Part shown: positions 633 through 62,233 of the stretch, one piece after another
Layout: each line of letters opens with the position of its first letter
How positions within the stretch are numbered: position 1 is the first letter of the stretch
DNA from: Psammoneis japonica
Lineage: Eukaryota
Reading direction: 5' to 3'
DNA: 64,000 bases
Assembly: GCA_008632985.1 (NCBI GenBank)
Contig: QPGO01000078.1
Location: 1 to 64,000 of the forward strand
Program-made: the position numbers and the translations under genes
Notes under the pieces: generated by a model
What the model was told of the DNA's origin: nothing
Databases searched by the model: none
The model's input: the letters and a program-made list of their open reading frames with translations, nothing else

Positions 633-2951
633 TCAAGCTCGCTGCACTCGCAACCCCTTCCTCTCTCCCTTTCTTTCTCCCCTCTTCCTCCTTCTTTCTC
701 CTCTCCCCTCCCCCCCTCTCTTGGAGTCACTGACCCCCCCTAAACCCCGCATGGTTGCTGCAGGCCAGCACTGCTCCGACTTCGGCACTGGAGCATCCAA
801 TCCCTTCGAGGTTTCTTTGGCATTCAAAACTGCATCCTTTGTGTCGGTTGTAAATAGCGACAGTCCACTGTCTGGATCTAGATGCCCTCCAGCAGCGGGG
901 GCTCCATCAGAGGCAGCACACTTGTGTCGAGCAAACCAATCCTCGAGCAACGTGAGCCTTTTCTCCAGCGGGTGCCTCCAGAGACGAATGTGTTCCTGGC
1001 AGTGCTTCCACCTTGAAGAGTGCATGACATCGTGCATCTCCTCATCAGAATGCTTCTTGTTGTTTGGCGTGCCATCCTTCAAGGCTTGCATCACAGCTTG
1101 GCGGTCGGACCATTCGGCACATGATGCGGTTGCTTTGAGATCACTGACAGCTTGCCAACAATCAGCATGTTCTTTTCGGAGCGTTCTTGCAATTCGGTGC
1201 ATCCAATGAAAGAGCCCAAGGAGACAGATCATGTTCATTCCGAATGTCATCTTCCACAACTCCGACTCATTCGGCCAGGTGTCGCTGTGGTGGAGTTTTG
1301 GGCGTGCGTTCTTTCGCCTGGCAAACTGTTCTGCCGCGTGAGCAAAATCTTTTGCTTCCAATGTTGGGGTTGGGCAAGCGGTTCCCACCTGCCCCTTTTC
1401 GTTGCACATGGTGAACAGGCCTGCCACTCCGCCTGCTTTCTTTGAGCAGTTTTTGAGAATTTGAAAAGTGTGGTCGGATGCGACGCTCACGGCGGCTCCA
1501 ACCATCTGCAACAATCTCGTGCACCTGTCACACGAGGACGTGTCAAGAGCCGTCAATTTCGATTTGCCAGGTTCGTCATAAAGATCAAGAAGTGCTGAGG
1601 GTGATGGGCTGCACCCGCCCATCCAATCCTCGAAAGACACCCACTCTTTGCTTTTGTCGATGGCTCGGCAGCAGTGCTCTTTCTGGAGGTCCACGAAACA
1701 GGCGGCTCGCATTTGGTGCAGCATGTGCGAGAACTCACCCCCATTTGCATGCGTGACAACAAAGGACTCAAGGAGTCTTGCAGTTTCCTTGGTGAGATGC
1801 CACTTGTTGCTTACACTGGCATGCTCAGGCAATGTTGGATGTGCTGACTGTGGGCTTTTTGGCAGCTTGTGCAGCAGTCGACCGTCGTTGCCCTTGCATC
1901 GAATTTTGCATTTGTTGCATTCGCACCACATTGACACCGCCACATGCGTCTTCCCGCTGATGCAACACATTGGTGTCGCCCCACCATGTCGAGCAAAGTC
2001 CATGCGATCATGAATCATTTCCCCGTCACACTCTCCGTCAATGCAGGAGAGATAGATGTTAGGATGGTTCAGCTCCCAACAAACGATGCACACTGTCACA
2101 CCTTGCAGCTGATGGCAGCAACAATCAGGCGGTGAAGTGCAGTCATCCTTGGGAACTTGAAAAGACACTGCACCAGGAGGAAAAGCACCATCCTTGACCT
2201 CCAGAATCTCATTGAGCTTGGGGCTTTTTGCTGCAGCAACAGGACACTTGTTGCTGCCTTGTTCGAATCTCGGCTTGACAGAATCCAACAGACAACTGAT
2301 GAGAGCACTCACTGCAGCCGGGCACTTCGTCCTCTCCTCTGAGTTCTCACACTTTTTCACGCGTGCTCGAATCTCTCGTTTCAAAGTCTCAACCGAAAAT
2401 TTAGCATCAGTGGCCGACTTGTGGGCATTCTCGGCGCGCTCCATGGGGCCTGCAGCATCAGCCACCCCCGAATTCACCGGCTTGCATGTGTTGGCAACAC
2501 CTGGAGGAGGCAACACAGCTTGAGCTGCAGGTTTCTGTTTTCCAAAATGGTCTCGCATGGTTGACACTCCCTTTTCTGGAGCATCCAGAATCGTGTTGTT
2601 TGTTTCGTGAAGCTCTTTGTCACGTCGCTCTGCATCCATGGTGGCTTTGGTGACGTTCACTTGCAAGCACCTCTTTGAAAATTTGCATGTGGGATCATGG
2701 CCATGATGACATGCAGGACCTTTGTCACATCTCTTGCATGTCTTCGTTCTGTCGTCTACTCTTGGCACCTTACGCCCACTAAAATCGCTCTGATGCGTCC
2801 GCTTCTGGCGTGTGTGCGCTTGGCTTTTGCTCGCTTTGATGGAGCCTTTGCGTTTCTGGGATTGAACTCCCATGTTGCTAAAGAAAGGATGTAGCTGCCG
2901 CTCTGCAGCCACTTTTGTTGGAGCAGATTCTTCGGTTGCGTCCGTCATCAT
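633..2951 (-). pseudogene. Zisupton/KDZ-like (DUF6729-type) DDE transposase, TpA-hypermutated and C-terminally truncated
   Basis: 772-aa ORF with SDHTFQ...TMCNEKGQV...SDTWP...LGLFHWMHRI and a final SKRG, matching the remembered Zisupton-type motif order (DxTxK, NExGxI/V, YxD, xxFHxMxR, RGxSxxE). Only 2 Tyr in 772 aa, with many Cys/His. Homology ends in a purine-only run. Assignment is by motif recall. Confidence 0.7.
654..722. repeat. 69-nt pure pyrimidine (C/T) tract
   Basis: Only C and T from 654 to 722, at the point where the transposase is cut off. Confidence 0.95.
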
Positions 2952-3238
2952 CGAAGCACCAGCAGAGATTGTACTTTTCTCTCTCGTGGTTTTTTTTTTG
3001 TGAGAGAATTTTTCTCATCGCGTGAGAAGTCTGTGTTGTTGTGATTTTCCGTGGCGCGAAAGGAAGAGATTGTCGGTCTCCGCATCATTCTGATTCTTGT
3101 GTCTGCTTTTGGAGAGCTGTCTCAACCTCCTCGTCCCTAAGTGATTGCGTCAGATTTTCCAAAAAAATGTTAATTAATTGATCGGAAAGTCGAGGACTTT
3201 CCGAGAGTCTCCCTTAAGTAGAAATCCCAAATGCTGAA

Positions 3239-3250
3239 TTCTGATTGGCT
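3239..3250 (-). promoter_or_regulatory. AGCCAATCAGAA CCAAT box upstream of the transposase
   Basis: ttctgattggct on the + strand, about 290 nt upstream of the transposase ATG. The same 12-mer occurs at the ends of the 54.6-60.6 kb element. Confidence 0.45.
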
Positions 3251-3911
3251 CTCGTAGCGCCATTCCTAATCCTCCCTCGATGATGCTCGAATCCGAGGCA
3301 AACAAATGGCGCTCTAGGGCCACTGTATCTTGATGAGAATGCCATGAACACTCCCAACAATCAAAACCATGTTGTATTTCAATAACTTACACACGTTTCT
3401 ATCGAGACATCTGAGAAAAAATAAATGCTTAATTTCATCTCTGAGTCGAAAGAGAATGGCAAAAACATCATGCAAGAGCATTTCGACGAATTTTTCTGCT
3501 GCAGAATTGCTTTCAAAGCCTGGTAAGTCTCTTGCATGAGAAATCAATAAAAATCGATTGAATACTCAAAAGAATGATGCATGTTATGATTGTGATTGAT
3601 GTCGTTTACTGTATTGCATTCTTCGAAGAAGCCGCATCATGGTCTTTCGGGTTTTTTCGAGAAGGCCGCGGTTTCATTATTCTCGTTATTTCGATATCCG
3701 TATGAATACTTTATATTCAAAGCTTTCATCCGTTGCGCACGCAAGTCGAGCTCGAATTAGATCTCAACGGAAATCTAGAAATATAATGATATACATTCCG
3801 TATGTCAGGAATGTCTCCACGAAAGATCCAAGATCCAGGATCCGGAGGAGCCGAGGATCTGTCCATGTTTTCTTGCCACTTGTATCCATGCACTTGCTTG
3901 TCCCGACCCTG

Positions 3912-7878: not shown

Positions 7879-8003
7879 GTCAACAACAATGACCAAAGCA
7901 AGATCGATCCAAACAACGCCATAGCGAAGTGCTGGGTACGCATCGAGTAACTTCTGGATAACGTCGACTGACGCACCGCGCTGTGGCGCATGCGCAGTGG
8001 ATT

Positions 8004-8069
8004 TCATCGTGGGACCCCACAAATACGGAGGGACACGTAACCCGGAAATGTAGCAATTTTGATTTTTTG
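8004..8069 (+). repeat. Left TIR (TpA retained)
   Basis: tcatcgtgggaccccacaaatacggagggacacgtaacccggaaatgtagcaattttgattttttg. Confidence 0.92.
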
Positions 8070-8161
8070 CTCATGACGCGTGAGACAACAAAATAAACAA
8101 AGATGCCGTTGCGTTTGACACTCTCATTCTAGCCGCTGAAACACTCCTTCCGCAGTATATC

Positions 8162-9433
8162 ATGGCACCGACGTCTCTCAAGCGTAGTACGAACAGTCAA
8201 AAGGCAGAGGCTCCAAAACGACGCCGTTCTGCTTCCAACGAGCCTGCTGACAGTTCGCACGCCGATGCTGTTGCTCAGGCAGGCACGCGACTTGGGAAGG
8301 AGCTTGCCGATGCCAACCAGGCGGAAACCATGGTTCAACTGAGACGTAGTAGCCGTGCGCGAAGAATGACTGATGCTGGGGCTCAATGCCAAATGGCAAA
8401 CAGGCAGAGACGGGAGCGGAATCGACAAACGCATGATGAGGAGAATGTGACTGCCGAACAACCCCCCCGCGAGTCGGAAGAAGAAGGGGCAGTCGAGCCT
8501 CCACCCACAGCGGAAGGAGAGATAGACGATGAAGTGGAGGTGGAAGAGGAAGAAGGTGCTCCTCCAGCTGAGGAGGAAGAAGCGACTTCACCAGCAGCAT
8601 CTGCGGAAGAGGAAGGAAAGGAAGAAGAAGGTGCTCCTCCAGCTGAGGAGGAAGAAGCGACGTCAGCAGCAGCTTCTGCAGAAGAGGAAGGAAAGGAAGA
8701 AGAAGGCGCCGCAACACGCAATCCCTTTGAGCATCCCGAAGACTGTGCACCTAGAAATGAATCAAACATTGGTCGGCATGATGCGCAGGAGCTCAAAAGG
8801 AAGAAGAAAGGCACGAACAACATGACTGGAGCCAAGAAAAGATGAAACCTGACGGATCTTCCACGAAGTGCACGAGCTTCCTTCGACCACAACATGAGAA
8901 CGAAATTTGGCCGTATGACAAAGAATGCACGCGGTGTGCTTAAGTGCTGTGCACTCGATCCTGAAAGTGAGTTGTTCGAAATCAGCCCAAAAGTCAGGGT
9001 GACTCTTGCGATCGAGACTGATGTGAAGCATTTCAAATCAAACAAAGAAGCAGAAAGTGGTTGTCTCACAGAATGAGAAAAAGTGGACAAACTCAAAAGG
9101 GAGAGGCCGTTGCTAATTCTCGTATCCAACAGCAGGGAGGATGTGAGGAGCACCTTCACTGCAGTTGAGTCACACCCAAATGAAGCCAAGCAGTTGCACA
9201 AGGAAAAGAAAGAGGCCGGTGGGACAGCTCGGTTTTCTGACTTGCAGACTGCTGAAGTGCATGAGCTGCATGGCATGGGCAATGAAGATGAGGCAGAGGA
9301 ATTCATGAAAATGACAGTGGATCCGGGGAAAGAGGGTGAATGGACTGGATCCAACACTGGTCCTCGTCAAGCACTTGAAAAGCTGATGAGGCGACGGCAA
9401 TCAAACCCAGTGCAGCATTGCAACAATGCATGA
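8162..9433 (+). pseudogene. Accessory ORF of the TIR element (acidic, low-complexity N-terminus), interrupted by TGA stops
   Basis: ORFs 8162-8845, 8894-9076 and 9083-9433 share one frame and are separated only by TGA codons. Confidence 0.55.
8549..8710 (+). repeat. 75-bp coding tandem repeat (about 2.2 copies; EEGAPPAEEEEATSxAASAEEEGKE)
   Basis: Units start at 8549, 8624 and 8699. Confidence 0.9.
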
Positions 9434-9479
9434 GTCGCAACAATGTATGATGTGAATGTGCCTCTCTAATTGTTCTAGT

Positions 9480-12400
9480 CTAAGATGGTTGTGTGGATCG
9501 CTTCTTTCTTCGTGGGCTGGAGAGGCTGACGATGGAAGAATCGATGCTACCCAGAGTTGAGGCTGACACTTGACCAAGCACTTGGTCCTGCAACTGAGAC
9601 AAGTTCTCGTGCTGTGAGGCGGCAAAGTTGCGGGAACAATCCACAGTGCACTGCTGTCGGCCTCCAGACCTTGACTCTGTTGTCCCATGACAGAACGGCA
9701 TCCTCGTCTGCTTTTTCAGACGAGCCACATCAACCCCGTCCGATGCATGTTCCTTGTCAAACAATTCTTCCTTTCTCTTTTTTCGAGCATCGTAAAAACC
9801 AGGAACCTTGTTGAGATGCTCTCGACCCTTTGTCACCATGGTGAGATGCCAGTCTCGAGCAGCAGCAGTTTCCATGCCCTCAATGGCTACGTCTGCGGGG
9901 AAGGCCCGTTCGAATTTCTGCTTCTGTCGCCGTCCAGGATTCATTTGTTTTATCCTGTCTCTTGACACCTTGCATTCTGCCGAGAGAATTTTTTTAGTGT
10001 GCGCACCTTTTATTTTCTTCATCTCTTTCTTGCTGTCCGACATGTGCTTTTTGACAAAATTGTCACGAGCATCTTCAAGCTCTTCGAGGGTCGCTCGAGG
10101 TGGCTTTGGAAGTGCCTTTTGATTGACGGGGTTGGGGTTGCTCTTGTTGAAGGGATCAGCTTTGTGACAATCAAGGGCAGCCATTTCTCCCAGTTCAGCG
10201 AGGAAGCAGTTCATGGGATCAACTCGGTGCTTCCCTTTTGGCGTCCACATCGCCTGAGGTTCCTCCTTTCCAAGAATTTCCGGTGGGCTATCATGGCGCA
10301 CTCCTAGGCAGTTCACATCCCACAACTGACAGACCATGGTGCAAAACGTACGACCAAGATTTAGAGGCCTGTCACTCTTCGGAATGGAACTCAACAAGTG
10401 TCGCTTCGAGAGACGCCCTGGTTCTTCCTTCAGATTCGTGTTGCGGTTCACATTTCTTGTGGCAATGATTTTTTTCACATTCATCTGCATTCTGATGATA
10501 GAAAGTAACTTCTCAAAGTTAGATGTACATTGTAGCAGCATGGTGCATCAACTTTGTTGACGCACCTGTCAATGCACTCCTCTTTCAGTTTCGAGTTTCC
10601 CAAGTCTTGCGTGCCGCATCCGATTGAGGTGTCCTTCTGTTGGAATTCTTGGTGTCGATCGGCGCACACAACAGCTCCTTGTTCTGTCTTCTTGAACACC
10701 GCAAACTTCTTGAACATGGCTTTGTCTTTTTCAGACATGGTGCACTCTCGCTTTGCGTCTTCCTCGGCGATCCTCATGTGTCCAGTGGCATTTGCAATCG
10801 AAAAAATGTTGGCGGCAACAAACATGTCTCCGTCTCCATTGCCATCCCCTGCATCAGATTCAGCAACTTGGTGCATGATGCACATGAGGGCAGTGTTGAC
10901 ATCACACTCGTTTGTCGACTCTTCCGGGCATGCCGCCATTCACTTCCGGACGCAATCTTGGAGCTCAACAGGAGAGAACTGGATTTTGCCGTCCCTGTCT
11001 AGCTTTGACCCATTCACCCTCATCCATGCCATGACACCAACACAAACATGGGCGTTGAAACACTCAAACAGCTCGTCGTCGTGTTGGTTTGGGTTTGGAG
11101 GATCGCACAGCCACATGACCTTTTTCAAAGTCGGGCGCCATGCCAATGCCAAGTCCTGAAGTCGGATCTTTCCGATGTTCCTCATGCCTCTCCTTTCGGC
11201 GGACTTTTTACCTCAATGGAAACCTCCACAACAAACCAGAAGCATGTCACACACACCGGGGTTTTCAGTCTGCATGGACAACATTTGTGCTCCTGGCTGT
11301 CCATCCACACAGAAACACAAGTGTCCCCCTGCCATTGATGGTGCGTCGGGATTGCCATCCTTCAAAGCACACCAATCCTCGCCTGCGGTGTTCATCCAGT
11401 GTCATGCAGCACATTTTGCTCTCTCTTCCACTCCTTCCTTTTTTTTTGCTGGATTCTCTGGGATGCACGTGTCGGGGAAGGCATTGTTCAAATCGCACTT
11501 GTCCTCACCCTGGACATGAAGGATCCTCGTGCGCAGCTGAGGGGCATTGCAATCAATGAGACGATGCGTGCCACATTCTCCATGACCTAAATTCACATCA
11601 TCAACAACGCATCGTTTCCCTGTCTCAATGATGGTCTTCATTGCCGGAAAGTCCCCAAACAAGTCCATGAAGTTTCGAACCAATTTACCTTTCAGATTGT
11701 GCATGATCGTGCAGCGAGAATCTTGGGGCAAGAGATCTTCCGGTGTGAGTGTCCGTCTTGTTGTTTCCCATCTGTTTTGTTCATGAGAAAGTCCGGCCGT
11801 AAGCTCCTTTGCTTCTTCCTCCTTGTTCACTGTCACCTGCTGGGTTGTGAAATGGTGCATGGCAGTGCACCCGTCTGTGACAAGCCTTTTGTCAAGATTG
11901 TCCAAACTGATCCCCAACTGATCACCTTTCTGAATGTCGAGTTGGCGCACAAATTCATCATCTGCCTCAGCAATGTCCTTGCATCGAACGGAACTTCTTG
12001 AGAGGGAGAGACCCCAATTGTGGAAGCAAAAACTCTTGGTGCTTGACGATGACTTGGAAAGGACCTCTGCTGAAGTCCTTTGGAAAGGCGTTGGTTCATT
12101 GCTCGCAACATTTCTGATGAGCTCTGCGCAGACGAATGCCTTGTTGCGAATTCTCTTTGTCACATCTGTCACTTTTCCACAGTCTTGCTCTCTTGAGCCT
12201 GTCATCAGGTGCTCCATAAAAAGATTCAAGAGGCTCTTGTCATTGTTGGCAAACCCTTGTAGCTCATCTATAGAGCCGTTCCAATGGAGAGCCGGATCTC
12301 GGCATTCCGCTTCAGGCTGCACCAAGAAAGCATGAAGTGCCAAAGCAAGTGAACAAAAATCGGTCTTCACATCTGCAGAGAAACATCCCAACTCAGCTGC

Positions 12401-12877
12401 CCGCAAATTTGCAAAAAACGACCATCCGCGTGCACCAGTGGCAACTCCATCCCCCCCTGTCGCAACTGCAAAAACCACTTCGTTCTTTTGTTCACGCGAA
12501 GGAAGACACAAGAAATCATCAAGAGCTTCAAAGCCATCAATGTCAAAATGTGAGCATGAAGACTCTTGCTGTGTGACTCTAGTGCCAGACTCTCTGCTTC
12601 GTGGCGTAACTGCTCTTGACCCATCGGATTCTCTGGGAGCATTTTCTCGAGCTAGCGTGTCTCGGCAAGCAACGCACTTGTGGCAGTCAGCACGGCTGTC
12701 ACAGCTGGGACAAATGGGCCCTTCACAAAGTCGCTGTGCATGCATTTCTCCAAAGCAGTGCGGGTACAAATGGCACCCACACGGACGCATGGTGAAGCAC
12801 GTCTTGCTCTTCAGTGCTTCTTGACACGCCGTATTTCCACAGCTTTCTGGGGAGGCAGCCTTCCTTTTTGATGACAT
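9480..12877 (-). pseudogene. Large transposase-like protein with N-terminal RING-like finger (DUF6589-like DNxD...DG.P...GGFH...D..QE), fragmented
   Basis: CGCHLYPHC...CPSC, LGISLDNLD, CVDGQP, VCCGGFH and ADRHQEFQQKD occur in order across ORF fragments. Superfamily is uncertain. Confidence 0.55.
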
Positions 12878-13018
12878 GACAATCTTCCACAGTGCCAAAC
12901 AGTCTTCTTGTGGAGTGTGACAAGTGATTGGAGCAGAGGATTGAGCTGCACAACGACTGTGCACTCTCCATCGGACGCAACAGTGTTTGTGGTCATGCAT
13001 CTTTCATCGAGAAAAAAT

Positions 13019-13084
13019 CAAAAAATCAAAATTGCTGCATTTCCAGGTTGCGTGTCCCTCCGCATTTGTGGGGTCCCACTGTGA
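13019..13084 (-). repeat. Right TIR (TpA-mutated)
   Basis: Reverse complement is tcacagtgggaccccacaaatgcggagggacacgcaacctggaaatgcagcaattttgattttttg, 60/66 identical to the left TIR. Confidence 0.92.
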
Positions 13085-14673
13085 GATTGGTGGGTAGACT
13101 GCGTGCCGGTGACCCTTGCCACCTTTCGAGCGGTGAGCATCTTTGTTTTGGTCCAATGCAGCCTGAACCCCTGAAAAAGGGGTGGACAATTTCGGACCGC
13201 CTCGTGCAACACAAGGTTGCTCTTGGTGGCAGTTGTGAGGTTCTTTGGGCACGGGGACAATCCTGCATCAGGGAATGGTCGGACAAATTCATGGAACCCA
13301 CCCCACTGTCTCTTCTCAATGGCCACAAAGAGAGCAATGTCAATCATTGAATCGAGCTGCAGTGAAGAGTTGTCACTGTTGTCAATGACTGTGACAGGCA
13401 ATGAGGACAATCCCTCCTGGATGTCATCACATGCATCAAATGCACCGTGTTCTTCAGCTGCAGGGTCTTCTTCTCAACAATGACACCGGATTGCACCCCT
13501 CCCATCTGACACTTCAGATCCAATTGTCCAATCTTGAAGATGTGTTCCTGTCCTTTCAACCACCCCTGAGCAAGTTTCTTCCCTGCCTTTGTCTGGCTCA
13601 ATGCCTCATGTTTGCTGTTGAGGCATGCCTTGCACTGGGGGTTGTCTTCTGCAGCGCTGGCATTGCTGCGCCGTCTGCCACTGGCTTCTCTGGCAATGAC
13701 CCAACTTCGTCTGGGAGCACTCGGCAATTTGACAGTTGCTGATGGGGTTTGAGTTGCCAGGAGTTGGTGTGGTCATTTGCACAATGCTGTCTGGCAGACC
13801 ATGGTCTGGCTGCTGCATTGTTGATCACAGTTCTCTTGCTTTGATCAACAGCAAAAACATGATGGATTGCTGGTCTCCTTCATTTGTGCTGTGCTGTGCA
13901 GTGCAGAAAGAAAACTGCATCCACTGAAATGAATGACCAAGCCATGGCCCATTGACATTTTGGTCCCCGGCAACAGAGTTGGTGATGGTCATGAGAAGGC
14001 ATCTTTGTCGCCCAAACTTGACTTTGTGCGACACTGACTGTGTGGTGTCAATGTCAGCCCAGGTGGACCAAGACTCAAGAGTGGTCAGTCGCTGCTTTTT
14101 TTGCTCAAATTTGGTGGAACAGCTCTTGATTTGTATGATTTTTCCTGAATTTCACAGTCCTTCACAATGGTGAAAACAACAAGCCACAAAGTCTGTGATG
14201 GAGGTGGTCTGATCACAAACTCTTGTTTGTTTGTGTTCCTTTTGCATCAAAGATTACACACACATCAAAAGTTTGCAGATGCCCCACTGCATTTTCAAGA
14301 AAGATCAATGATTGCATCATCATCATGCTTTGATTGTGGTGCACAATGTTCTCATTTCCTTGTGCAATCCGGTGTGAATGCAAGCAATTTTTGCACTCAA
14401 AAATGAACACTGCAAATGATCTCATTCAAATGCCATGACAATTTTAGGATGAATGCGGCAATGACCCCCTTGATGGTTTTTACATGGGGCCAGGGTCAAC
14501 TTGGAATTAAGGTGGTGCAGGTGCAAAGGTGGGCCAGATTCTGCGTGTGCAGAACTTAGCACATTTTCTACACAAATTGCCAAAGTCACCTTGCCAACTT
14601 GAGCCCTTTCCCAGACGATGGAAACTTGAACATTTCACACAACGAAGTGTCCAGGCTGCTCAGTTTCACTCCC

Positions 14674-14843
14674 CTCAACTTGTTCATTGAGAGAAACTGC
14701 AAGTTTTCATGCATTTTTGAAGATGTGCACTGAGTCCACTGGCAATCAGAAAGGCACCAAAATTGGGAAGTTCAAGTTTCATGGAGCTGTGGCAAATGAT
14801 GAATGCCTGAAAACTTGCAGTTTCTCTCAACAAACAAGTCAAG
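14674..14843. mobile_element. 170-bp MITE-like element with 42-bp inverted arms
   Basis: 14674-14715 and the reverse complement of 14802-14843 differ only by two CA/TG swaps and one transversion. Confidence 0.7.
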
Positions 14844-14859
14844 CCATCAACATGTGGAG

Positions 14860-15830
14860 GTCTCTTTTTGCACAAGCTTGCATTTTTTTAAAACTGGATG
14901 CTTTGCACAAAATGCACGCACTCGTTGCCAAAATAAAAATTTCAGTGACAGGCCCAACTTCCAACTTTGTCCATTCACAACAAGACACCACAGAGTGCAC
15001 AGACAATGGTCATGACCATGCATGATCTTGGACTTGTTGAGTGTGGACATGTCCACAGCCAGTCAAACACCAATTGTTGGCATTTCCTCCTGGAAAGTTG
15101 TGGCTCACCTCCCACAAGCAGTGTGATTTTGGAGAAAAACAGTGGCACTTTGAACCTGACAACTGCACCAAATCCAACAACTGGCATTTGAAGGTTGAGA
15201 AGTGCAGTTCACACACAGGTCTGACAGCCCTGATGGGGGCTGGACAAACTTGCAACAAGTGTTTTGGGGTTCTCAGAGGTGTCTCCGCAAAATGACAAGG
15301 GCAGTGCACGAGAAAATTCAAAATCACAAGCTTTTTGAGAAAACATCTCTGCACATCAATCCTGCCTTGAGGATGGATTGTTCATTTGCGGTTGATTTTT
15401 TATTTGGAGCTTGCACTTTTCCACAAAAACCCGGATTCCTTGCACCAATTGCACGCGTTCACCAAAACAACATTTCAGCAACAGGTCAAACTTTGTCTGT
15501 TTGCAAGACAACACAGAATGCACATGTGATGGTTGCGACCATGCATGATGTGCAGCTTGGCAACTGGGTGTGCAGACATGTCCACAGCTGGTCAAATGCC
15601 AGTTGCTCCTGGCATTTCATGGAAAGTTGTGGCTTGTCCACCACAAGCAGCCAGCCCGATTTTGGCAGAAAATGGTGGTTTGTCACGCACAACAACCAAG
15701 GCAAATGCAACAATTGGCATTTGAAGGTTGACATGGTGTGCAGTTCACACAGAGGTCTGACAGCCCTGATGGGGGCTGGACACACTCATGTGTTTGGGGG
15801 TGCTCAGAGGCGTCACAAAATGATGGTTCT
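14860..15830 (+). repeat. Diverged tandem duplication, unit about 530 bp
   Basis: Shared blocks in both halves, e.g. gaccatgcatgat, gacatgtccacagc, ggaaagttgtggct, ggcatttgaaggttga and ggtctgacagccctgatgggggctggaca. Confidence 0.8.
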
Positions 15831-16177
15831 GTTTTTGCCTTGGACTTAACTGCAGACACCGCATGGCTTGCATTTGTGAACACACAACAAAAGAGTGAGT
15901 GCAACGATCTGTCAATGCACCAGTTTTCTGAACACAATCCACCATGCTTCTGTTCTTTTCATGTTTTACACTGTTGATCACAATGCTGTTCACTGGATTG
16001 ACTGGTGTTGTCATTGTTTGACAAAAGCTGTCATAAAAATGGGGCGCAAATGCTTCAAGGCAAATGCATGAGAGGGGGCATGGGAATTGCCAATGCACCA
16101 TTTTCATTCATGCATTTAGCGTGCACATGTGATGAAGCATCATTTGTGCTTTTTCCCCAGGAACTCACGCTTCCCGT

Positions 16178-16464
16178 GGAACAACATGGCAAAAGGTGGC
16201 AATCCCGGGGAATTTTGGGGATTCCCACGGTGAAACCAAACTGAGCATTAAAAAAAACAGTGCATGACAATGACCCATCCTTCAATTGCTTTCTGCTCTG
16301 AACTTGCAGCTGCACATTGTGGAGCAACATGGCAAAAGGTGGCAATCCTGGGGAATTTTGGGGATTCCCATGGTGAAACCAAACTTGGCTTTAAAAAAAA
16401 ACAGTGCGTGACAATGATCCATCCTTCAATTGCTTTCTGCTCTAAACTTGCAGCTGCACATTGT
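16178..16464 (+). repeat. 143-bp tandem duplication (2 copies)
   Basis: Copies start at 16178 and 16321. Differences include three CG versus TG/CA and one TA versus TG. Confidence 0.9.
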
Positions 16465-22900: not shown

Positions 22901-22919
22901 TTGACTGCCCATGCTGCCC

Positions 22920-46842: not shown

Positions 46843-46959
46843 CAACAACGTATAGCGGTAGTTGAGGACGATTTCACGGTTAGAGTACACATGGGATTCC
46901 AAGTACGACGCTCAGTTTTCATGCCCTATTTCAATTTTTCGTTCTATACAATTCATAAA

Positions 46960-52700
<5,741 letters not shown>

Positions 52701-52894
52701 TTAGCGTTTAGGCCCTAGCGTTACAGGTTTCTTGCTCCGTTAGTGAATTGACTTTCCATAGAACGTATATTGGAATTTATGTGGTACTCCCACAACGTGA
52801 AAGGCCAAAGATACTCTCCTCAAGCAGAAATCACTTCTTTCGACGCCACCGCTGGGTGCTGTGCTTGCCACTGTTCTTTGAGGTTGTCGCACCC

Positions 52895-53501
52895 ATGAGA
52901 CTCGTGGTACAACGGGTCAAGTCGGCCTCTGTCACTGTAGAGGGAAATAAGGTCTCTTCGATTGGTCCTGGAATCTTGGCCTTGATTGGCCTACACGAAA
53001 ACGACACGCCAGAAGACCTTTCGTATTGCTGCAAACGTTTGTTGGGTGCAAAGCTCTGGTCAAATGAGAATGGAGGCCAGTGGAGGTACGAAAATCTAGA
53101 CGATTGATGATCTGTGGATCTTGCATGACAAGTGATGCCTGTTTTCCACAACTGTTCAACACCACTTTCTTTTTTAAACTTTTTGTCGCTGCGTCAGACA
53201 CGGTGTGAAGCAAAAGCAGTACGAACTGCTGTGTGTGAGTCAGTTCACTCTCTATGGGACATTATCAAAGAAAAATCAGCCCGACTATAAGCGTTCCATG
53301 AAGGCAATACCGGCCGAAGCTCTTTACATTGAGTTTTTGGAAATGTTGCGACAACAATACCAACCAGAAATGATTCAAGACGGTGTCTTTGGAGCCATGA
53401 TGGACGTGGAACTCGTCAATGACGGGCCGGTTACGATAATGATTGAAAGCGAACCAAAGGCGACCGGTGAAGATGAAAACGATGTAGAGAAAAGAGCTTG
53501 A
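52895..53501 (+). CDS. DTD1: D-aminoacyl-tRNA deacylase
   Basis: MRLVVQRV, LCVSQFTLYG and GVFGAMMDVELVNDGPVT motifs. Intron 53086-53197 joins the frames. Confidence 0.95.
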
Positions 53502-53709
53502 GTTTGAAGGAACCGCAAGACAGTTGAACAAGTAGTCGAGAGAACAACATTGACAACAACACAAAGTAAGCATCTAAGGGTTAATTTCTTAGGATTGAGC
53601 AAGAAAGGACGACAGTATGCCTCCTGCTCCCTTTTAACATATTCACAATTATCTTCTCTCTAGACCGGTCTGTACAACATTCATATCAACAAAAAGAATT
53701 TTCTCGCGC

Positions 53710-54344
53710 CTATTCTTTTTTCGGAGGAGCTCCAGCAGTTTCCATTTCATCAATCACTTTAATCATTTTGTCCACGTGCTTCCTCACCAATTCAGGGTTA
53801 AACTGTGCAGGATCGCTATTCTTCGTATTATCTCGAAGCATAAAACGACCAATAAGGCTTTCCCGAGAAACAGACAACCAATGTTTCTTGCTGACGGAAT
53901 CGTAGCTGGTCCTGATTGCGAGAAACAAAGAAAAAATAGCAGAAGCACAACCATGTCGAATGTGAGATAATATTTTTGGGTAAAGAAAGTGCCTGATACA
54001 CTCTATACCATCCAAATAACGTACCAGATTCGACCGGGGTCACTATCTTCGTCTTGTCGGGGAGGAAACTGAAGCACAAAAGTTCCGTTTGCCCTCAATT
54101 TGAGTCCACCGTCGAGACCATGACGAACTACCCAGTCATGTCGGGACTCTTGCAGGTACTCCAAAACAACCTTTGAGAGGTGATGAACATAGACCGGGTA
54201 GACACCCCTGTTGTTGTCAACTTCGGCAGCATCGTTGGAGCTGAATTGTCGTTGTTGCAAAGTAGGTTGCTGCGACGACGCACATGGAGGGACCAAGCGA
54301 CGCAACGCAGGACCACGTGCTCCTCTTGACAGAATAAGGGACAT
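53710..54344 (-). CDS. Hypothetical protein, probably mitochondrial
   Basis: Arg-rich presequence ending RQFSS. Intron 53912-54024 (GT-AG) gives GRIW-TSYD. Confidence 0.75.
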
Positions 54345-54599
54345 GTTACGGGCGAATCAACGAGTACAAACAACGATATTTGGTGGACGGAACTTTCTTC
54401 TTTTCCTTTTGCCGCTTTTGTTCTCGCAGCAATGTTGAACAAGCATCAACGCTCGTCCAAAACGAGAAAGTTTGATGAGTGAGAATGATGTCAGAAAAAT
54501 GAGGGTGACGTGATGGATGTAATTAACATTGGAAAGCTACAGATGTGAATGTGCATTATGATCGGGGAGAATTCCGGAATGTTATTCCTGCGGGGTGCG

Positions 54600-57500
54600 C
54601 TGCGCGGCGGGTGGCAGGTTCGCACTTTTTGATTGAGCATGGCTCATAGTTGATGCTACTGGATCTTTTACTCGAGAGCTCGAATCCCAGTACGTGGGTT
54701 TTGCACTGCCAAAAACACGCCGAAACCGCGCGAAGAGTAAAAGATCTTGAGATTCAGCCAATCAGAAGACGCGGAGCCAATCTTTCACGCTCGCTTCAGC
54801 AATAAATGCTTGTGTGGTGGAACCGCGCCCAAAAAAAATGTAGAAACAAACCCCGCAAGACAACTCGCAAAAAACAACTCCACACTCCCTGCCACATCGA
54901 CGTTCGAATCGTTTTGTTGTCAAAAACAACCATGGCACCAGGCAGAAAGAAAGGATCAAAGGACAAGAAACAAAGGAAGAAGAGGCGAGCTTTGACTCCA
55001 GAGGAGAAAGCAGAGAGGAGGAGGCAAATGGCTGCAAAAAAGGCCCGAAAGGGCAGGGAGGCCATGGCTGTGGCTCTGAATGGCGGCGCTGTAAGAACTC
55101 AAGCATCTTCTCCCAGGGCAGAGGAGAACAATCCACCAGAAGTTCAAGATGTGGATGAAGAAGAAGGGCAGCAAGACCCAGACAGAGACGAGCCCTCTTT
55201 GAGGATTGAGGACTTGCCTCCCGTGGTGGCAGAGCTGGATGATTTTGCTGAGTGTGATGATCTCATGGATGAAGACATCAGTGGACCCGGCGGGACCATG
55301 CTCAAATGCCTGAGGGCAGTCCGTGATAGACTCAGGGAAGAAACCACTGGGAATCTCGGCGGGGCTCTGAACAGAAGGTGGCTCTTGGAGCAGCTGAAAG
55401 AAAGTGATTGGAGAACTCCTGTCACAGATGCACGGAAGACTTGTCAGAAGCTTGGCATTGATTGTGAAGAGCCTTCATGCTGCCGAGAGATCATTGTTTG
55501 GCTGCCTCACATCAGGTGGGGTCCAGAAGCCACTCCATTTTGTGTCTCGTGCGGATCGAACCATCGAGTTGGCATTCACGGATGTCAAACAAATCACCAT
55601 GCAAGACGAGTTGTTGCCTGAACACATGCTGCTGTGCTGTGACAGCCCAGTGCATTTGTCACGGCTGCAAGGAACAACGAAGGCAAGGTGACGATGACGT
55701 GAGACAACACACTTTTGTGGGCCACAATCCCGCATCCACTGAACTGCTTCCTTGTGGATGCGGCGATGAGTTTCCTGCTTTCCTCACTCACAGGGCCGGA
55801 GTTGACAAGGAAACAGTGCTAGACCTCATGCGTCCAGTGCACGCAAAGGAATGCGCCCGGAAGCCCTTTCCAGCCTGCTTCTTGAGTTGCACTCCAAAAA
55901 GCACTGCCGTGAATGCATCAAACGGGAGAATGAGCACAAGCGTGAGAGGATGTTGAATCCAGAAGTCCGACGAAGCATGCACTCACCATTCTCTGACAAA
56001 TCTGGGATGTGACGGGCTTGTCCCCACCGGAAAGTATCTCGCTCACGTTCACAAGGAGTGCCACAAAACCATTCGATCGCATTTGGACAAGGAAGTGAAG
56101 AAGAGAGGTGCGCGCCGCCTTCACATTGATGCTTCATTCAAAGAAGCAAAACACCTTTGTCAATGCCACGGCAACCCCACATTCAAGGGGCTTGTCACCC
56201 ACGCAAATGAGTTTGGTGAGATGAGAATGCAACACCACGTGGCATCCGACAGCCATGACCAGATGCGGAATGCAATGTCCGCCTTTCTGAAGACAATTGA
56301 AGCGCATGGGCAGGATCCCGTGGAGCTTGCATTTGCCGACAAACCTGGTGCCGACAAAGCTTTCCTGCTTGACACGATTCCATCCCTGCAAGAATTTGAA
56401 GAACTGCACAACAAGAGCTGCACTGCAACCACCTCCGCTGCGGACAATGAATTCCCTGTCTGCAAAATTAACCCTGAAGACGTTCGTGTCCTGTGCAGCA
56501 ATGCTGAAACAGATGCGGCCATTGATGCTCTGCGAGACGTCACAAAGCAGAGAGCGGAAGGTGAGCGGGTGATCGGGCTAGATTGCGAGTGGCCAACAGT
56601 TGAGAACTCACGGGGCATGGTTGCATCAAGCGGCAAGACGGCCACAACGCAGCTGGCCTGCCGCTCAGATGACGGTGCCACCAAATGTCTCATGATGTCA
56701 TGGGGCAAAAGAGAAACATGCCACCCCGCCTTCGAGCTTTCTTGACCGACCCAGACATTCCATTTGCAGGCGTTGGAGTCACCGGCGACCTGAAGAAAAT
56801 TGGGAGAGATTTTAAGGATGAAAGATTAACCAAGAACTTGCCAAACGTTCAGAATCTCGGAATCTACGCTCGAAAGCGAGATGTGGCACATGACGGCACT
56901 GTTGGGCTCGACGCACTGGTCAAGCTGACCCTGAAAGAGACGCTGGAAAAACCAACAAATGTGAGACTGTCAGATTGGTCTGTCAAGCCACTCAGTCCAG
57001 AGCAAGCTGAGTGCGCTGCTGTTGATGCGGCCAAATCACTTGAGGTTTGCTTGTGCCTCAATGGGATGCCTGATCTTACAATGAGACTGTCCTCCAACGA
57101 GGCTGTCTCGAACATGGAAGTAGACGTTGTTCCAAGTCGTGGAAGTGTTTCGTCAATGGCAACAAGAGCTGGCTGGGGAATCATCACAGATGAAATGGAA
57201 GTCGCGAGTCCACCGAACTGCGCACCTTCCAAAATGATGGTTCAAAACACCAGTCACGCAAGAATTGTACGAGTCGACAAGGTGACTGCACCTCATCTCG
57301 TGGCACCTGGATTGAAAAAAAGCACTGGTGAAAAAGTCTGTCTGGGTGACTTTGGTGAGAGTCCATTTTCCGTAATGCTGCCGTTGTCCATGCTGAAGCA
57401 TCATGTGGAAAATGAAGATGTCCGAGATGCCCCTGCAGTCGACCGCATTGGAAACCAGAATGAAAACAACACAAGGACGGCACCTGCACCAGCACCCACA

Positions 57501-60500
57501 GCTGTAGAGCAAGAAGATGAAAGTGAGGAATTCGAGGAAACCAATGTTGACAATGATGACGCGCTTGATGCCAATTCCGCAACACTTGCCATGGAAGACA
57601 TCGAACACATGCGGCAATGCAAAGCCACAGCTAGCGACGCCGAGGCCGGGCGAATCACTCTTTCTCATCCTCATTTAGATGACCCGCTGCAGGCGCAAGA
57701 AGCACAGAACGTGTTCTCCGCGGTGAACGGCGACGGCTTTCATGGTGTTGACCGGCCAAAGACACCAGTTCGTCACATGTTCAAAAAGGCAATGAAAGTG
57801 GCACTCCGTGAAGCCGAGCATGCTTGGAATCCACAAAAACTAGAAGAAGCAAAGCAGGCCATGGTGGCTGATGGGTTGTCCGATGCCGAAATTGAACTTG
57901 AAATGTGCTGCCGAGCAAAGTTCTTTCGAGACTGTGTCGATCGCCGCAAGCTCCCTCCTGGACAGCTGCACTGGCGAGTCCACGCTGTCTGTGAGCTGCT
58001 GGGTTCCAAGACAGACAGTGCAACTGGACAACCACTCTTCAACAAGAAAGCCTGGAAGAAAGCCAATGGCGTGTTAAAAGACATTCTTGCAGGATGCGTG
58101 TCGGACCCTCCTGGAGTGTCATTCTGTGCTCTGCGCCTCGACAGCTCAGGAGAACCTGCAAAGAACAAATGCGGATTTCATCTGCTCGATTGCAACAGGG
58201 GAACAAGTGATGTTGAGTCGATTCACAAGCAAATGGTGACAACATTTGGAACGTGGTGTACCGGGGTGGAAATGTCTGACTGCCTTTTAAGTGAACGCCG
58301 GCATCGTCACAATCATCGATGCTCGGAGCGTCGACGACAGGGCTTCCCAAAGATTGGCCACTTCGACACGTGGTTGATTGACAGGCTGCAACTTCTCGTC
58401 ATGGACAATCACGGCGTCCTCTTGCATCCAGAATGGACAAATTCTAGCGACTACAAAGATGCAGCCGAGAGCTTTGATGCCATGCCCCTGCAAAATCAGG
58501 AGTTGGCAAACGCGGTCGAAGCTATACAGTTCGAGACCTGGACCAAGAGTGATGCGGGAAAACCAGGTGAGGAGAAAAAAGTGAAACTCGCTAGAGACCA
58601 GGCACATCTTGCTGCAGCAATGGGAGCCAAGCTCCCTTTCTTGCCTGTGCATGGTGTGGACGAGTTTCAACTTTTCTCCCGGTTTTGCCTCGAGTCTCCC
58701 TGCAACGCCGCACAGTTCTGTCTCGATTGGACCAAGCACTGCAACGGCACAACGATTTTTCCCAAGCTAGAGGTGCATCTTAACCTGCATCATGAAAAGT
58801 GGAAACGAAATCAAAGAGCCAAGGATGCAATTCAAGGTGCAAGGACTATCTTTGATGCACTGGCGCACCTGAATCAGACTCTTCTACCCGATGCTACAAC
58901 TGACGAGACCTCCAGCGATGTCGAAATAGAAGTCTTGGAAGACGGCAACTCCAACAAAGGTGATGCTCAACAGCAACAGCCCCCAACTCGCTCTGTGCAC
59001 TGGCCGATCCCACTTGCACCACGTGCTCTTGAAGTTCCATCCGAGAATGCTCGTCGCAACGACGACAGAATCATTGTAGTGGGCGGCACGCAAACATGCC
59101 CCGTGCACCCCATGTTGGCGGAAGGTGAACCTGCAAATGAAAGAGGCCCGAGAACAAGAAAGAGAGGTGAGCGCAGTGGTGACAACAAGAAAAGAAATAA
59201 ACGTCGTTGCATGCGCTGCGTCGAATTTGAGGGCGGGAACGCATGTGAATGCAAAGGCCGACATCCCTCGCACGGACGAGAGAAATGTGAATATTTCAGG
59301 GACAATGGGGATCCTGTTACTCACTCGTAGAAGAAAACTTACCTTATTTAGTCAATTGCTTTGAACATGTACACAAGCACAACACTAGCACCAAATCCGT
59401 CTTCATCCATTGGCACCGTGCGGATGGCGCGGGCCGCAGATGCAACAAAATGAGAACCAAGAGTGCAGGGTGAGCATGGCATGACTGTTTCAGGGAATAA
59501 GGAAAAACACATAGAACCATACTTAAACTATCTCACCATTCTCTGGCAACAAGTAGATTCCAAAATAATGTCATTCATTAGTCACGTCGACCACCCGTGG
59601 TTCGAGTACTTGATGCACTGTGTGTCTTGAGGTACCGTGTGACTTGAGGCATTGTTGCACTCCAGTTGGTGAGTCTTGAAGTGCCTCTTGATCTGCTCCA
59701 CTCGTCGTGGGATGGGCATTCAATTTTTGTAACTTGGTGACACTTCGTCACATAAATTAGGGACTTGCTGACGACAACCCTAGATTGATAAGGTGCAAGT
59801 CGTTCTAGCCCTTATCTATAGATCCGAAGGCCTTCAGAAACCACGAGAAGCCTCCACCTTGGACGAGATGGGAGCGACTCAGAAGCAACTGAACTGAAAT
59901 ATGTGAAACAATAAGGCAGAGAGCTAGACTGTGAGTAGTTGTCGAAACAGAAATCAGGCATATCATGAATGTTAACCAACAGATACCATCTTTTCAGCAT
60001 CTTACCTTGCACAATGATTCGATCGTGATGCCAATTCCATTGTCATTATGGAATCATTTGTACAATGATACATCATACGTCCGCTTCAGTCCTATGGTAA
60101 TGGAGACATTCTGGCTTGTAGCAACACCCAAACAATGAAGGTGACGACGGTGATGGTTTGCTGTTTGATGTGTTTGCTTTTTGAAAGAGAAATGGGAGCG
60201 ACGCTCAGTTTATGCTTCCTCTATAGAGACGAGTAAATTTATATAAAATTTGAACGACTAGTGCGAGTAAGCAAGGTCAATCTCACAATCGAACTGACGT
60301 ATGACAGACGTGCTGGATTCTGATTGGCTGAGGGGAAACATCTTTTACTTTTGTTCGGTTCTGATTGGCTGAAAGGAAGTGACGAAAGCCTTTTTTACTC
60401 AATTCTGATACGTATGGATCAGCACAAATTTTACATGCGCTTTTCTGGTAGGCCCACACACGTGCAGAACTTCGAGCTCCAAAGCCGCTTCTAAAAACAT

Positions 60501-60620
60501 CCAAAATGGTCTCGAGCTCCCGAGCAAAAGAGCTTCTAAAATGGAGGTTGGAAATGTAACGCCGACATCCACAAAACACAACGCTTTTCGAACGATGTTG
60601 TTGCAAGGCGAAAAAACAGA
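54600..60620. mobile_element. Zisupton/KDZ-like DNA transposon with imperfect subterminal inverted repeats
   Basis: 54664-54683 pairs with 60512-60531, and 54736-54767 pairs with 60318-60349, as inverted motifs. Outer ends are approximate. Confidence 0.65.
54932..59330 (+). pseudogene. DUF6729/Zisupton-like transposase with inserted DEDDy (WRN/RNase D-like) 3'-5' exonuclease, frameshifted and hypermutated
   Basis: Transposase: FPAFLTHRAGVDK, IDASFK, ANEFGEMR, AFADKP, then DGFHGVDR and RGTSDVESIH. Exonuclease: VIGLDCEWP, GVGVTGD, RLSDWS.PLS.EQ.ECAAVDA. Frameshifts near 55615, 55850 and 56700. Confidence 0.8.
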
Positions 60621-60621
60621 G

Positions 60622-60698
60622 TCTCTTCTCTCCTTTTTTCTCTTTTCTTTTCTCTTCTTTCTTTTTCTTTCCTTTTTTCTCCTCCTCTCTTCCCTTCC
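60622..60698. repeat. 77-nt pure pyrimidine tract
   Basis: Only C/T from 60622 to 60698, at a junction between two repeats. Confidence 0.95.
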
Positions 60699-60699
60699 G

Positions 60700-61950
60700 C
60701 TCTAAAATGCGCTCCAGTGGCATGGCATAAAAACCTTGAGCATTTCTATTTCTCCATCTGTTTGAGTCCCTTTTTCATTTTTGGGAAGCCTTTTCGTTAA
60801 AATGAATGACAAAAAAGAGAGAGCGCCAAAAAGATGGCCCACACATGTCGTCGACGAAACATGGCTCACATTGGCAATCAGCAGAAAAACTGAGAGTCAA
60901 ACATCAACCATCGGCGGAAAGAAAAGAGCCTCCACTGCTTGATTTGCAGCTGCCAGGCTGAAAAAAGGCAAGATCAAATCAGGTCAAATGTTTTTGTGAA
61001 AAAAAAAGGTCAGGGTCACCCACAAGGCTGTGTGTGAGCAGCTCTGAGCTCTGCTTCTCACACTGCACAGAGCTTGCTGATTGCCCATGATGAAATTCTG
61101 AAACACAAAATTCCAGCTGTTGTTTGTGTGTTGCCCCACATTTGCCAGCATGTGGTTTTCAAAACTGCTTTGTGCTGGCCACAGGCTTGTTGCAAGATTT
61201 GGTGAATGTCAGCACAAAAGTCTGCTGCACAAAGTGCTGGAAACACCCAGGCATTTGTGGAAGTCCTCCTGTGGCAACAGCCATTGGTTTCGTGAGATGA
61301 AGAAACTGAGCAGTTGGTGTGTTGCAGAACACTGCTTTCCACTCACTTTTGATGCTCGTGGTTTCTGCAAGGAAGCAAGCTGATTTTTCCCTTTTCTTGG
61401 GTGTGGAAACAATGTGTTGTTGTCAAATCTCATTGGCTCACTCAGCACCCTGATGATTTGCTGCTTCAAGCACATCATGTCTGCTTCACAAAGGCAGGCA
61501 GCACTGCTTGCCAACAAAAAACTTGGTGGCAACCAGCCCTTTTGCTGCAGGAGGAGAATGCCTTGTGGAAGAAGCTCTGGAATTCTCACTCACAGCCAGT
61601 GCTCTTTCTGAGATGAGAGATGTCATGTGCACGTGCAACTTTTGTGGAAAAGAATCTGAGGACAAAATGGTTGGCAACTGGCCAGCCATTCCTTTGCATT
61701 GCAGCAATGACTGTCTCTTGTGACGGATTCGGAGAAGCACAGGAGGTGTGTAATGAGGTCAGGCAGAAGCCCAGGAACTGCTCCCATGCTTTAAATTGTG
61801 CTGCCCTGTGGATAGCTGATTCGCTTCACTTGAGTTCTGCACACTTGATGAATTGTCTTGCCAGCTTCAAGCTGGGGGGAAACATGTCACTCACTCTGGG
61901 CATATGTTCAACCATCCTTCCAGAAGGTCTCCGGAAGTCTCGCGGACAGT
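60700..61950. mobile_element. Unclassified TpA/CpG-depleted repeat remnant
   Basis: Same compositional signature as the other TE blocks. No motif recognised. Confidence 0.55.
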
Positions 61951-62193: not shown

Positions 62194-62233
62194 TACGTAT
62201 CGTCTCTGCTCAATGAAACTGAAAACATGGCGA

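Follow-up and report, generated by a model that had tools for sequence, protein, structure and literature searches.

The window analyzed in this study is a 64,000-nucleotide (nt) stretch of eukaryotic DNA (contig QPGO01000078.1, positions 1 to 64,000 of the forward strand), about half of which consists of inserted or repeat-like DNA. The locus contains a PP2C phosphatase gene, a D-Tyr-tRNA deacylase gene and a packed array of same-strand open reading frames (ORFs), together with six blocks, named A, B1, B2, C, D and E, that are nearly devoid of the dinucleotide TpA (TA). The loss of TpA from these blocks is the subject of the present report. The blocks were delimited by means of TA-free gaps in the sequence, and all TpA and CpG counts were taken from the assembled contig sequence. 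Over the whole window, the observed/expected (O/E) ratios were 0.29 for TA, 1.44 for CA, 1.49 for TG and 0.63 for CG. The coordinates of the features are given in Table 1.

The six blocks add up to 33,967 nt, in which 128 TpA remain, compared with approximately 2,257 expected from the base composition and approximately 1,266 expected at the O/E of the host DNA. The TpA O/E ranged from 0.00 to 0.13 over the blocks and was 0.56 in the remaining pooled 28,138 nt, where the CpG O/E was 0.98; the longest TA-free gap, 2,198 nt, lies within block C. The TA density changes within approximately 100 nt at positions 8188, 30587, 47269, 52402, 54841, 60798 and 61751. A gradual transition was found only at both ends of A and at the 3' end of element D (58.4–59.3 kb), where erasure is complete in the core (54842–58445) and partial in the 3' part (58446–59330). 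An earlier reading of the same DNA (the original prediction) had claimed that TpA is nearly absent from every repeat block and normal in host genes, and its hand counts over 300 nt were reproduced exactly: 0 TA and 20 CG at 1261–1560, taken as a transposable element; 1 TA and 1 CG at 21301–21600, taken as an old transposable element; and 14 TA and 21 CG at 34261–34560, within a gene. Six TpA-poor blocks beside normal genes were recovered. The label of repeat block or transposable element was only partly borne out: there is evidence of a mobile or selfish origin for A, B1 and D, whereas B2, C and E have no recognizable content. The loss of tyrosine from the encoded proteins was recounted as claimed, with 2 Tyr in the 772 amino acids (aa) of the ORF of A and 3 in the 881 aa of an ORF of D, in comparison to 1.8–4.4% in eight flanking ORFs; all three ORFs of B1 contain 0–0.3% Tyr.

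Table 1. Features of the 64,000-nt window, with TA counts and O/E ratios where available (TIR, terminal inverted repeat)
Feature	Coordinates	Strand	TA count	TA O/E	CpG O/E	Remarks
Block A ORF	633–2951	-				772 aa, selfish-element-like gene; core 880–2757 TpA-erased; depletion graded towards both ORF ends
Block A	880–2757	-	5	0.047	0.67	TG 180, CA 190
Element B1	8001–13087	-				approximately 5.1-kb insertion; TIRs of approximately 69 nt; ORFs of 324, 353 and 532 aa, all on the minus strand
Left TIR of B1	8001–8070	+	3			outside the erased zone; TpA kept at 8024, 8038 and 8051
Block B1 erased zone	8189–13095	-	41	0.134	0.67	
Right TIR of B1	13018–13087	-	0			inside the erased zone
Block B2	13096–30587		57	0.047	0.13	TG 2017, CA 2006
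Control region	30588–47268	+		0.36–0.77 (1-kb windows)	~1	packed same-strand ORFs; beta-helix, EGF, He_PIG, fn3 and DUF7507 domains
Block C	47270–52402		5	0.014	0.21	
Control region	52403–54841	+				D-Tyr-tRNA deacylase gene; TA density normal
Element D	54842–59330	+				pseudogene of a protein of approximately 1,500 aa; WRN-like 3'-5' exonuclease domain and DUF6729
Block D erased core	54842–58445	+	20	0.098	0.71	
Block E	60799–61751		0		0.21	
Control region	61752–64000	-		0.61–0.62		PP2C phosphatase gene; catalytic domain uninterrupted; PF00481, E 1e-28

Three of the blocks contain coding remnants that could be compared with other sequences. For element D, a tblastn search with protein P0003 covered 55145–59327 in three frames, the pieces adjoining one another directly; this points to two frameshifts, near 55.6 kb and 56.7 kb. 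Its 881-aa ORF has 11 homologs with 36–46% identity, all of which contain PF01612 and some PF20499; a PDB profile search for element D also hit the WRN exonuclease (E 5e-27). Two homologs were found for the 772-aa ORF of A, P0014 (41% identity) and P0015 (31%), the latter with a weak match to DUF6729 (E 0.014), and by sequence comparison the A family appears to be distantly related to the D family. Both families, which are widespread and look selfish, are found on many short aquatic metagenome contigs, in some cases as almost identical copies shared by up to 8 contigs. The D family, in which DUF6729 occurs together with a WRN-like exonuclease, is widespread in metagenomes of both marine and freshwater origin; judged by its sequences, it may represent an uncharacterized class of eukaryotic mobile element. 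No literature on DUF6729 was found. Scans of IMG/VR with the D family and with the flanking ORF at 35917–37470 returned 0 relatives, so that a viral origin is not supported, and no terminal inverted repeats were found in the six metagenomic relatives in which they were sought.

Element B1 is bounded by TIRs. Its 532-aa ORF has two relatives among 1.84 billion representatives (E ≤ 0.001), the one substantial relative being P0016 (E 1.9e-52) and the second a 125-aa protein (E 3.8e-04). In PHROGs, the sole match was a faint one of a single B1 ORF to a helicase (E 3.8e-4), and a homologous-protein search for longer relatives of the 353-aa ORF found none. A Glu-rich coding stretch of B1 contains a 75-nt tandem duplication (2.1 copies, 95% match, 8549–8706).

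The two TIRs of B1 offer a comparison of the same sequence inside and outside an erased zone. They are 89.9% identical, and of their 7 mismatches 3 are TA in one copy versus TG or CA in the other: the three TA sites of the left TIR read TG, CA and CA in the right TIR, where one CG also reads TG. The right TIR is covered by a TA-free gap that extends from 12832 to 13095. Since the left TIR, outside the zone, keeps its TA and the right TIR, inside the zone, reads TG or CA, B1 was mutated in place. Within B1, the leftmost stretch of approximately 190 nt (8001–8188), left TIR included, escaped erasure, whereas the right end, which abuts the older erased block B2, did not. The erased zone consequently tracks the edge of a domain and not the exact terminus of the element.

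Comparison with relatives revealed the direction of the change. The relatives of the three block proteins (11 homologs for D, two for A and one cluster for B1) contain Tyr at normal levels. Across the three block proteins, Tyr was kept at 1 of the 27 columns at which it is conserved among relatives, and was replaced by Cys at 9 and by His at 7, in agreement with the claim that Cys and His had been gained at conserved Tyr sites (16 of 27 columns). By protein, 1 of 12 such columns was kept in D (5 Cys, 3 His), 0 of 8 in A (2 Cys, 3 His) and 0 of 7 in B1 (2 Cys, 1 His). Conserved columns of D other than Tyr were kept at 287 of 363 positions. When TpG or CpA was reverted in silico to TpA, the consensus residue of the family was regained at 15 sites in D and at 10 sites in A, compared with 0–4 sites (D) and 1–2 sites (A) for control reversions in the ApG, CpG and GpG contexts; the excess of changes specific to the TpA context that the original prediction called for was therefore seen. 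In metagenomes, 105 relatives of D were confirmed, of which 80 were kept for analysis (L001–L080). Their TpA O/E was between 0.28 and 1.11 in all 80 loci, so that TpA poverty is not a trait of the D family. This comparison, which covers distant relatives (≤56% identity), also addressed whether other family members are equally free of TpA, and none of the 80 is TpA-poor. The loss of TpA is derived, specific to TpA and arose in situ.

A change of TA to TG or CA cannot create an in-frame stop codon, and long ORFs consequently persist in dead elements; the sole stop-yielding change, TAA to TGA, starts from an existing stop. In the ORFs of the blocks, TGA is nearly the only stop left, TAA and TAG having been removed. 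These observations bear on the idea that TA is avoided, intrinsically or by selection, in elements that are still functional, for example as an escape from a TA-cutting nuclease or from TA-targeting insertions. The 772- and 881-aa ORFs are indeed still open, but open frames are to be expected anyway when the change makes no new in-frame stop. Avoidance of TA is contradicted by the replacement of conserved Tyr at 26 of 27 columns, the two frame changes in D, the 0 of 80 relatives that are TA-poor and the TA retained in one TIR of B1, and we regard it as a very improbable explanation.

CpG content divides the blocks into two groups. In A, B1 and D, 76–92% of TpA was lost relative to the host O/E, in contrast to only about 30% of CpG, whereas in B2, C and E both dinucleotides were lost (CpG O/E 0.13–0.21). 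The extent of CpG decay separates young blocks (A, B1 and D, CpG O/E ~0.7) from old blocks (B2, C and E, 0.13–0.21). From the O/E values, and assuming a host-like ancestral composition, the rate of TpA loss per site is approximately 4–6-fold above that of CpG decay.

The gain in TG and CA amounted to 0.72–1.11 of the loss in TA and CG across all six blocks, in which the CpA/TpG O/E rose to 1.3–1.9. The young blocks have a GC content of 0.50–0.52, in comparison to 0.48 in the host DNA. In each block the numbers of TG and CA are almost the same (e.g., 2017 and 2006 in B2); since TG equals CA, and since both Cys (A to G on the sense strand) and His (on the antisense strand) are found among the outcomes, both strands were hit equally. 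The choice between TG and CA at successive sites is random (runs test, z −1.7 to +2.6; host regions alike), and no strand-coordinated mutation tracts of the kind produced by repeat-induced point mutation (RIP) or by APOBEC kataegis were seen by this test in the blocks. Such random, site-by-site outcomes fit many independent hits across many generations.

The erasure is confined to TpA. The ApA O/E is 1.22 in the blocks and 1.17 in the host DNA and is thus unaffected, and A/T runs of at least 5 nt are not depleted, with 4.6 per kb in the blocks versus 2.9 per kb in the host, which bears out the earlier argument from surviving poly-A runs for strict TpA specificity. The remaining dinucleotides are essentially constant in the blocks, GpC excepted. 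The frequency of GpC is raised in all six blocks, by +0.012 to +0.028; this rise fits a by-product expected if the changes TAC to TGC and GTA to GCA are favoured, and independently fits the preference for a 3' pyrimidine described below.

A mutator of the Pol eta type, which changes WA to WG and had been put forward as a candidate, was rejected: it is contradicted by the ApA O/E of 1.22 versus 1.17 and by the 4.6 versus 2.9 A/T runs per kb. In a broader form, the TpA loss could be a by-product that arises when late-replicating heterochromatin is copied or repaired in an error-prone manner, for instance by a Y-family polymerase, with no dedicated editor and no defence. The erased zones do resemble chromatin domains, as the zone of B1 starts approximately 190 nt inside the left end of the element and continues into the older B2. 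A similar indication comes from mutation-accumulation lines of the alga Bigelowiella natans, in which a mutation rate elevated roughly 1000-fold was reported and 11 of 15 lines showed the activity (Mettrop et al., bioRxiv 10.64898/2026.01.13.699255), suggesting a regulated or state-dependent process. Nevertheless, Pol eta activity predicts a loss of ApA, and ApA and the A/T runs are intact; the erasure is near total and concerns a single dinucleotide; and a TpA loss approximately 4–6-fold over CpG decay would be difficult to attain through errors of a polymerase. Such a by-product is therefore in our view improbable, though less so than the avoidance of TA.

The nucleotide that follows TpA influences its survival. 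Relative to host DNA, surviving TpA ranked TAA > TAG > TAC > TAT, and the 3'-neighbour effect was significant in both young (chi-square p 2e-5) and old blocks (p 5e-19). The ten strand-collapsed NTAN classes agree with an additive 3'-neighbour model; at the extremes, 0 of a 74-equivalent of ATAT survive, while TTAA is over-represented 3.75-fold and CTAA 3.24-fold. These values are suggestive of an erasure preference of TAT and TAC over TAG and of TAG over TAA, and the survivors in old blocks may include newly arisen TpA.

This order also bears on ADAR-like A-to-I editing of element transcripts followed by reverse transcription into DNA. ADAR favours a 3' G, yet TAG survives better than TAC or TAT. 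Moreover, B1 is bounded by two TIRs that have come to differ from each other in place, a Pfam scan of 103 ORFs revealed no reverse transcriptase in the blocks, the outcomes are strand-symmetric, and the erased zones include non-coding and unidentifiable DNA. The 5' U preferred by ADAR is in favour of such editing (bioRxiv 10.64898/2026.01.13.699255), which is nonetheless contradicted by the TIR difference, the strand symmetry and the 3'-neighbour order and which we consider hardly credible for this window.

The content of blocks B2, C and E could not be assigned. The Pfam scan, which covered 103 ORFs (≥110 aa) overlapping or abutting the blocks, returned 0 real matches and two sub-threshold ones at chance level. 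Block B2 is 17.5 kb of decayed DNA in which several short repeats occur, either in tandem or dispersed, and its right edge at 30587 is sharp (approximately 100 nt). C and E comprise 5.1 kb and 0.95 kb, respectively, and have sharp edges on both sides. In the nearly TpA-free block C, TRF detected a (CA)48 microsatellite at 50523–50616; both an ordinary CA repeat and the same process acting on another repeat were considered for its origin. The claim that the mutation is transposon-restricted is accordingly carried by the TIRs in the case of B1, is plausible for A and D, and extends to B2, C and E only by extrapolation. The description of the repeats as silenced likewise holds only in part.

Based on these results, we assign a probability of about 0.7 to the explanation that the blocks originated as insertions of mobile, selfish or repeat DNA in an intron-poor eukaryote and were mutated afterwards by a targeted, TpA-specific A:T to G:C process that acts at the level of DNA. 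The signature of this process, its direction, specificity, symmetry and borders are read directly from the blocks, and the reversions, the TIRs, the Tyr columns, the equality of TG and CA and the relatives agree in upholding the separate, strand-symmetric A:T to G:C process on inserted DNA that had been predicted. In the proposed course of events, insertion would come first; each TA would then become TG or CA, independently per site and with equal probability, over many generations, and mutation would halt within approximately 100 nt of the insertion borders, sparing the adjacent genes. A slower second process, presumably deamination of 5-methylcytosine (5mC), would convert CpG to TpG or CpA in the same DNA. 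The insertions could be targeted through their chromatin state or through small-RNA or homology recognition, and the process may serve in genome defence. For the chemistry, the leading candidate within this explanation is deamination of adenine to inosine by a TadA/ADAT2-like enzyme acting on DNA, to which we give slightly less than even odds.

An alternative chemistry would start from thymine. A TET/JBP-like dioxygenase might oxidize the T of TpA in heterochromatin to 5-hydroxymethyluracil or 5-formyluracil, which would miscode as T to C on either strand. As the site is palindromic, all of the sequence results fit this alternative equally, and the neighbour preference would then read as R-T-A. 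An enrichment of 5-hydroxymethyluracil at TpA has been reported for dinoflagellates, and 5-formyluracil gives rise to A:T to G:C transitions. However, a literature search linking hydroxymethyluracil, dinoflagellates and TpA found nothing, and excision repair of the modified base should add transversions and indels, yet the 881- and 772-aa ORFs are open and only two frame changes were found in 4.4 kb. Modification of thymine is, for these reasons, an unlikely route, although it is the most credible of the rival explanations.

Several points weigh against the explanation of a targeted process on inserted mobile DNA. Terminal repeats were sought around A and D and none were detected, and the proteins of these two elements are not established as transposases. 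The description as mobile DNA is an extrapolation for B2, C and E, that is, for 23.6 of 34 kb. The ancestral composition was approximated by host DNA and by distant relatives (≤56% identity). TpA being palindromic, sequence alone cannot separate deamination of A from a miscoding modification of thymine. Finally, the signature could be an artefact of assembly or base calling, in which densely modified TpA was misread as TG or CA and the real DNA still reads TA; with some long-read chemistries, modified bases are known to introduce systematic errors into the consensus. Strand-discordant reads of this kind should, however, yield CG together with leftover TA, and CG is lowest where TA is lowest. 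The blocks show independent decay, in the form of frameshifts in D and of B2, C and E without recognizable proteins, and 0.70 of the sampled 31-mers of 52001–62000, about half of which is erased, were present in one public run, possibly the source of the assembly itself, so that these data contain at least some of the erased sequence. In B. natans, genuine mutations of the same type were called from Illumina data (bioRxiv 10.64898/2026.01.13.699255). An artefact is consequently improbable, slightly more so than a polymerase by-product.

The neighbouring genes are unaffected by the erasure. At 31985–46842 (+), seven ORFs of 229–1750 aa lie on one strand, intron-free and separated by spacers of 5–243 nt; their products contain beta-helix/NosD, EGF/teneurin-EGF, He_PIG, fn3 and DUF7507 domains, and the operon-like arrangement is unusual in a eukaryote. 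Within the 1750-aa ORF there is a 96-nt tandem repeat (10 copies, 89% match, 44764–45721) that encodes a Pro/Ser/Thr-rich unit of 32 aa, typical of a surface or mucin-like protein. The D-Tyr-tRNA(Tyr) deacylase gene occupies 52712–53498 (+), with PF02580 spread over two ORFs that are separated by one GT-AG intron of approximately 110 nt (~53087–53197). As this is the only intron recognized in the window, intron density appears to be low. The PP2C gene (481 aa), a lysine-methyltransferase gene (373 aa) and the seven ORFs of 229–1750 aa are all uninterrupted. The nearest Atlas clusters are from a diatom for PP2C and from green algae for the methyltransferase, a mixed indication and not a decisive one, and none of 8 exact ORFs of the window was present in a collection of 15 billion proteins.

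The classical repeat-directed mutators, namely RIP, 5mC decay and APOBEC, all act as C to T. A targeted A:T to G:C change at TpA is the mirror image of these mutators and has so far been documented in one preprint on an alga. The window indicates that such a process can go to completion on transposon-like DNA, with borders respected to approximately 100 nt. Proteins are killed through the replacement of Tyr by Cys or His and not through stop codons, and the dead elements keep long ORFs, which constitutes a trap for gene prediction. The 3'-neighbour preference provides a measurable constraint for any candidate enzyme. Should the host not be B. natans, the system would be phylogenetically wider than reported, and TpA-free blocks rich in TG and CA would offer a simple genomic marker for it and, through comparative genomics, for its enzyme. 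A natural A-to-G editor of DNA would also be of interest for base editing. We regard it as an even bet that the source is indeed another organism and that the window represents a wider eukaryotic TpA-editing defence, which would prefer TAY over TAR, act faster than methyl-CpG decay and depend on a putative DNA adenine deaminase or thymine modifier.

Among known systems, fungal RIP and the RIP-like CpG hypermutation of basidiomycetes resemble the process in the window in that transitions are restricted to repeats or insertions, mobile DNA is inactivated, a dinucleotide footprint is left and the borders are sharp. However, RIP changes C to T (CpA to TpA in Neurospora) and thereby creates TpA, whereas in the window TpA is destroyed and GC rises; RIP also makes stop codons, which the process in the window cannot do, and the window gives no sign of a dependence on duplication or of a premeiotic burst. 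Fungal RIP was rejected as a candidate, given that TpA is removed and not created, that the CpA/TpG O/E is 1.3–1.9 and that the GC content of young blocks is 0.50–0.52 versus 0.48 in the host. Deamination of 5mC at CpG likewise yields TpG and CpA, and is the probable cause of the CpG loss seen in B2, C and E, but it cannot remove TpA, of which A, B1 and D lost 76–92% at a CpG O/E of ~0.7. To our knowledge, no enzyme found in nature erases TpA from chromosomal DNA. The natural target of TadA and ADAT2-ADAT3, A34, always follows U33, so that a 5' T/U requirement is built into these enzymes; the UAC loop of TadA is only partly similar to the 3'-pyrimidine preference in the window.

The closest counterpart is the hypermutation of B. 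natans, in whose mutation-accumulation lines 231 of 302 nuclear point mutations were located in either an integrated giant-virus region or a virophage region (Mettrop et al., bioRxiv 10.64898/2026.01.13.699255). The original prediction had considered the process to be undescribed, which does not hold, as the preprint reports the same change of TpA to TpG or CpA. According to the preprint, 230 of the 231 mutations in the viral insertions were A to G or T to C, and the GC-biased changes were all at TpA, at approximately 6e-7 per site per generation. It further lists 324 TpA-poor coding sequences, among which DDE and reverse-transcriptase domains are over-represented, and 124 clusters of 1-kb windows depleted in TpA and enriched in CpA and TpG. 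Its authors propose an ADAT2-like DNA adenine deaminase as their candidate, and activity on DNA is reported there for ADAT2 of amphioxus and of Trypanosoma. Our own literature search for TpA-erasing hypermutation of repeats or insertions found no report besides this preprint. From its figures we calculated approximately 1.1e-5 mutations per TpA per generation, 211/(3132 x 6169); at this rate, 95% of TpA would be erased in approximately 3e5 generations, so that saturation is to be expected.

The two systems share the TpA target, the TpG and CpA products and strand symmetry, as well as a footprint of TpA depletion with CpA and TpG enrichment beside normal genes, and both would be restricted to insertions of non-host origin. 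When the thresholds of the preprint were applied (rho TpA ≤0.43, rho CpA+TpG ≥1.52, a cluster being at least 3 consecutive 1-kb windows), 25 of the 64 1-kb windows of our sequence passed, including runs of 17 (13001–29001) and 5 (47001–51001). They differ in extent, since the blocks are saturated (O/E 0.00–0.13), whereas the nucleocytoplasmic large DNA virus (NCLDV) region of B. natans has a rho of 0.45, and in their targets, which are transposon-like or unidentifiable blocks here and integrated NCLDV or virophage DNA there. In addition, the window presents a fossil signature read from the sequence, in contrast to the rate measured in the lines of B. natans. The genes of the window are intron-poor, with one intron seen, whereas a gene of B. 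natans carries 8 introns on average, their mean length being 182 nt (PMC13746701, Table 1); the host of the window therefore appears to be a different organism. The co-decay of CpG and the 3'-neighbour preference are reported here for the window, and the words CpG and trinucleotide are absent from the main text of the preprint. In comparison with that text, the new aspects are saturation, the 3'-neighbour preference (TAT, TAC > TAG > TAA) and a loss of TpA that outruns the loss of CpG. The window is best regarded as a saturated, transposon-directed instance of TpA hypermutation of the B. natans type, probably in another lineage.

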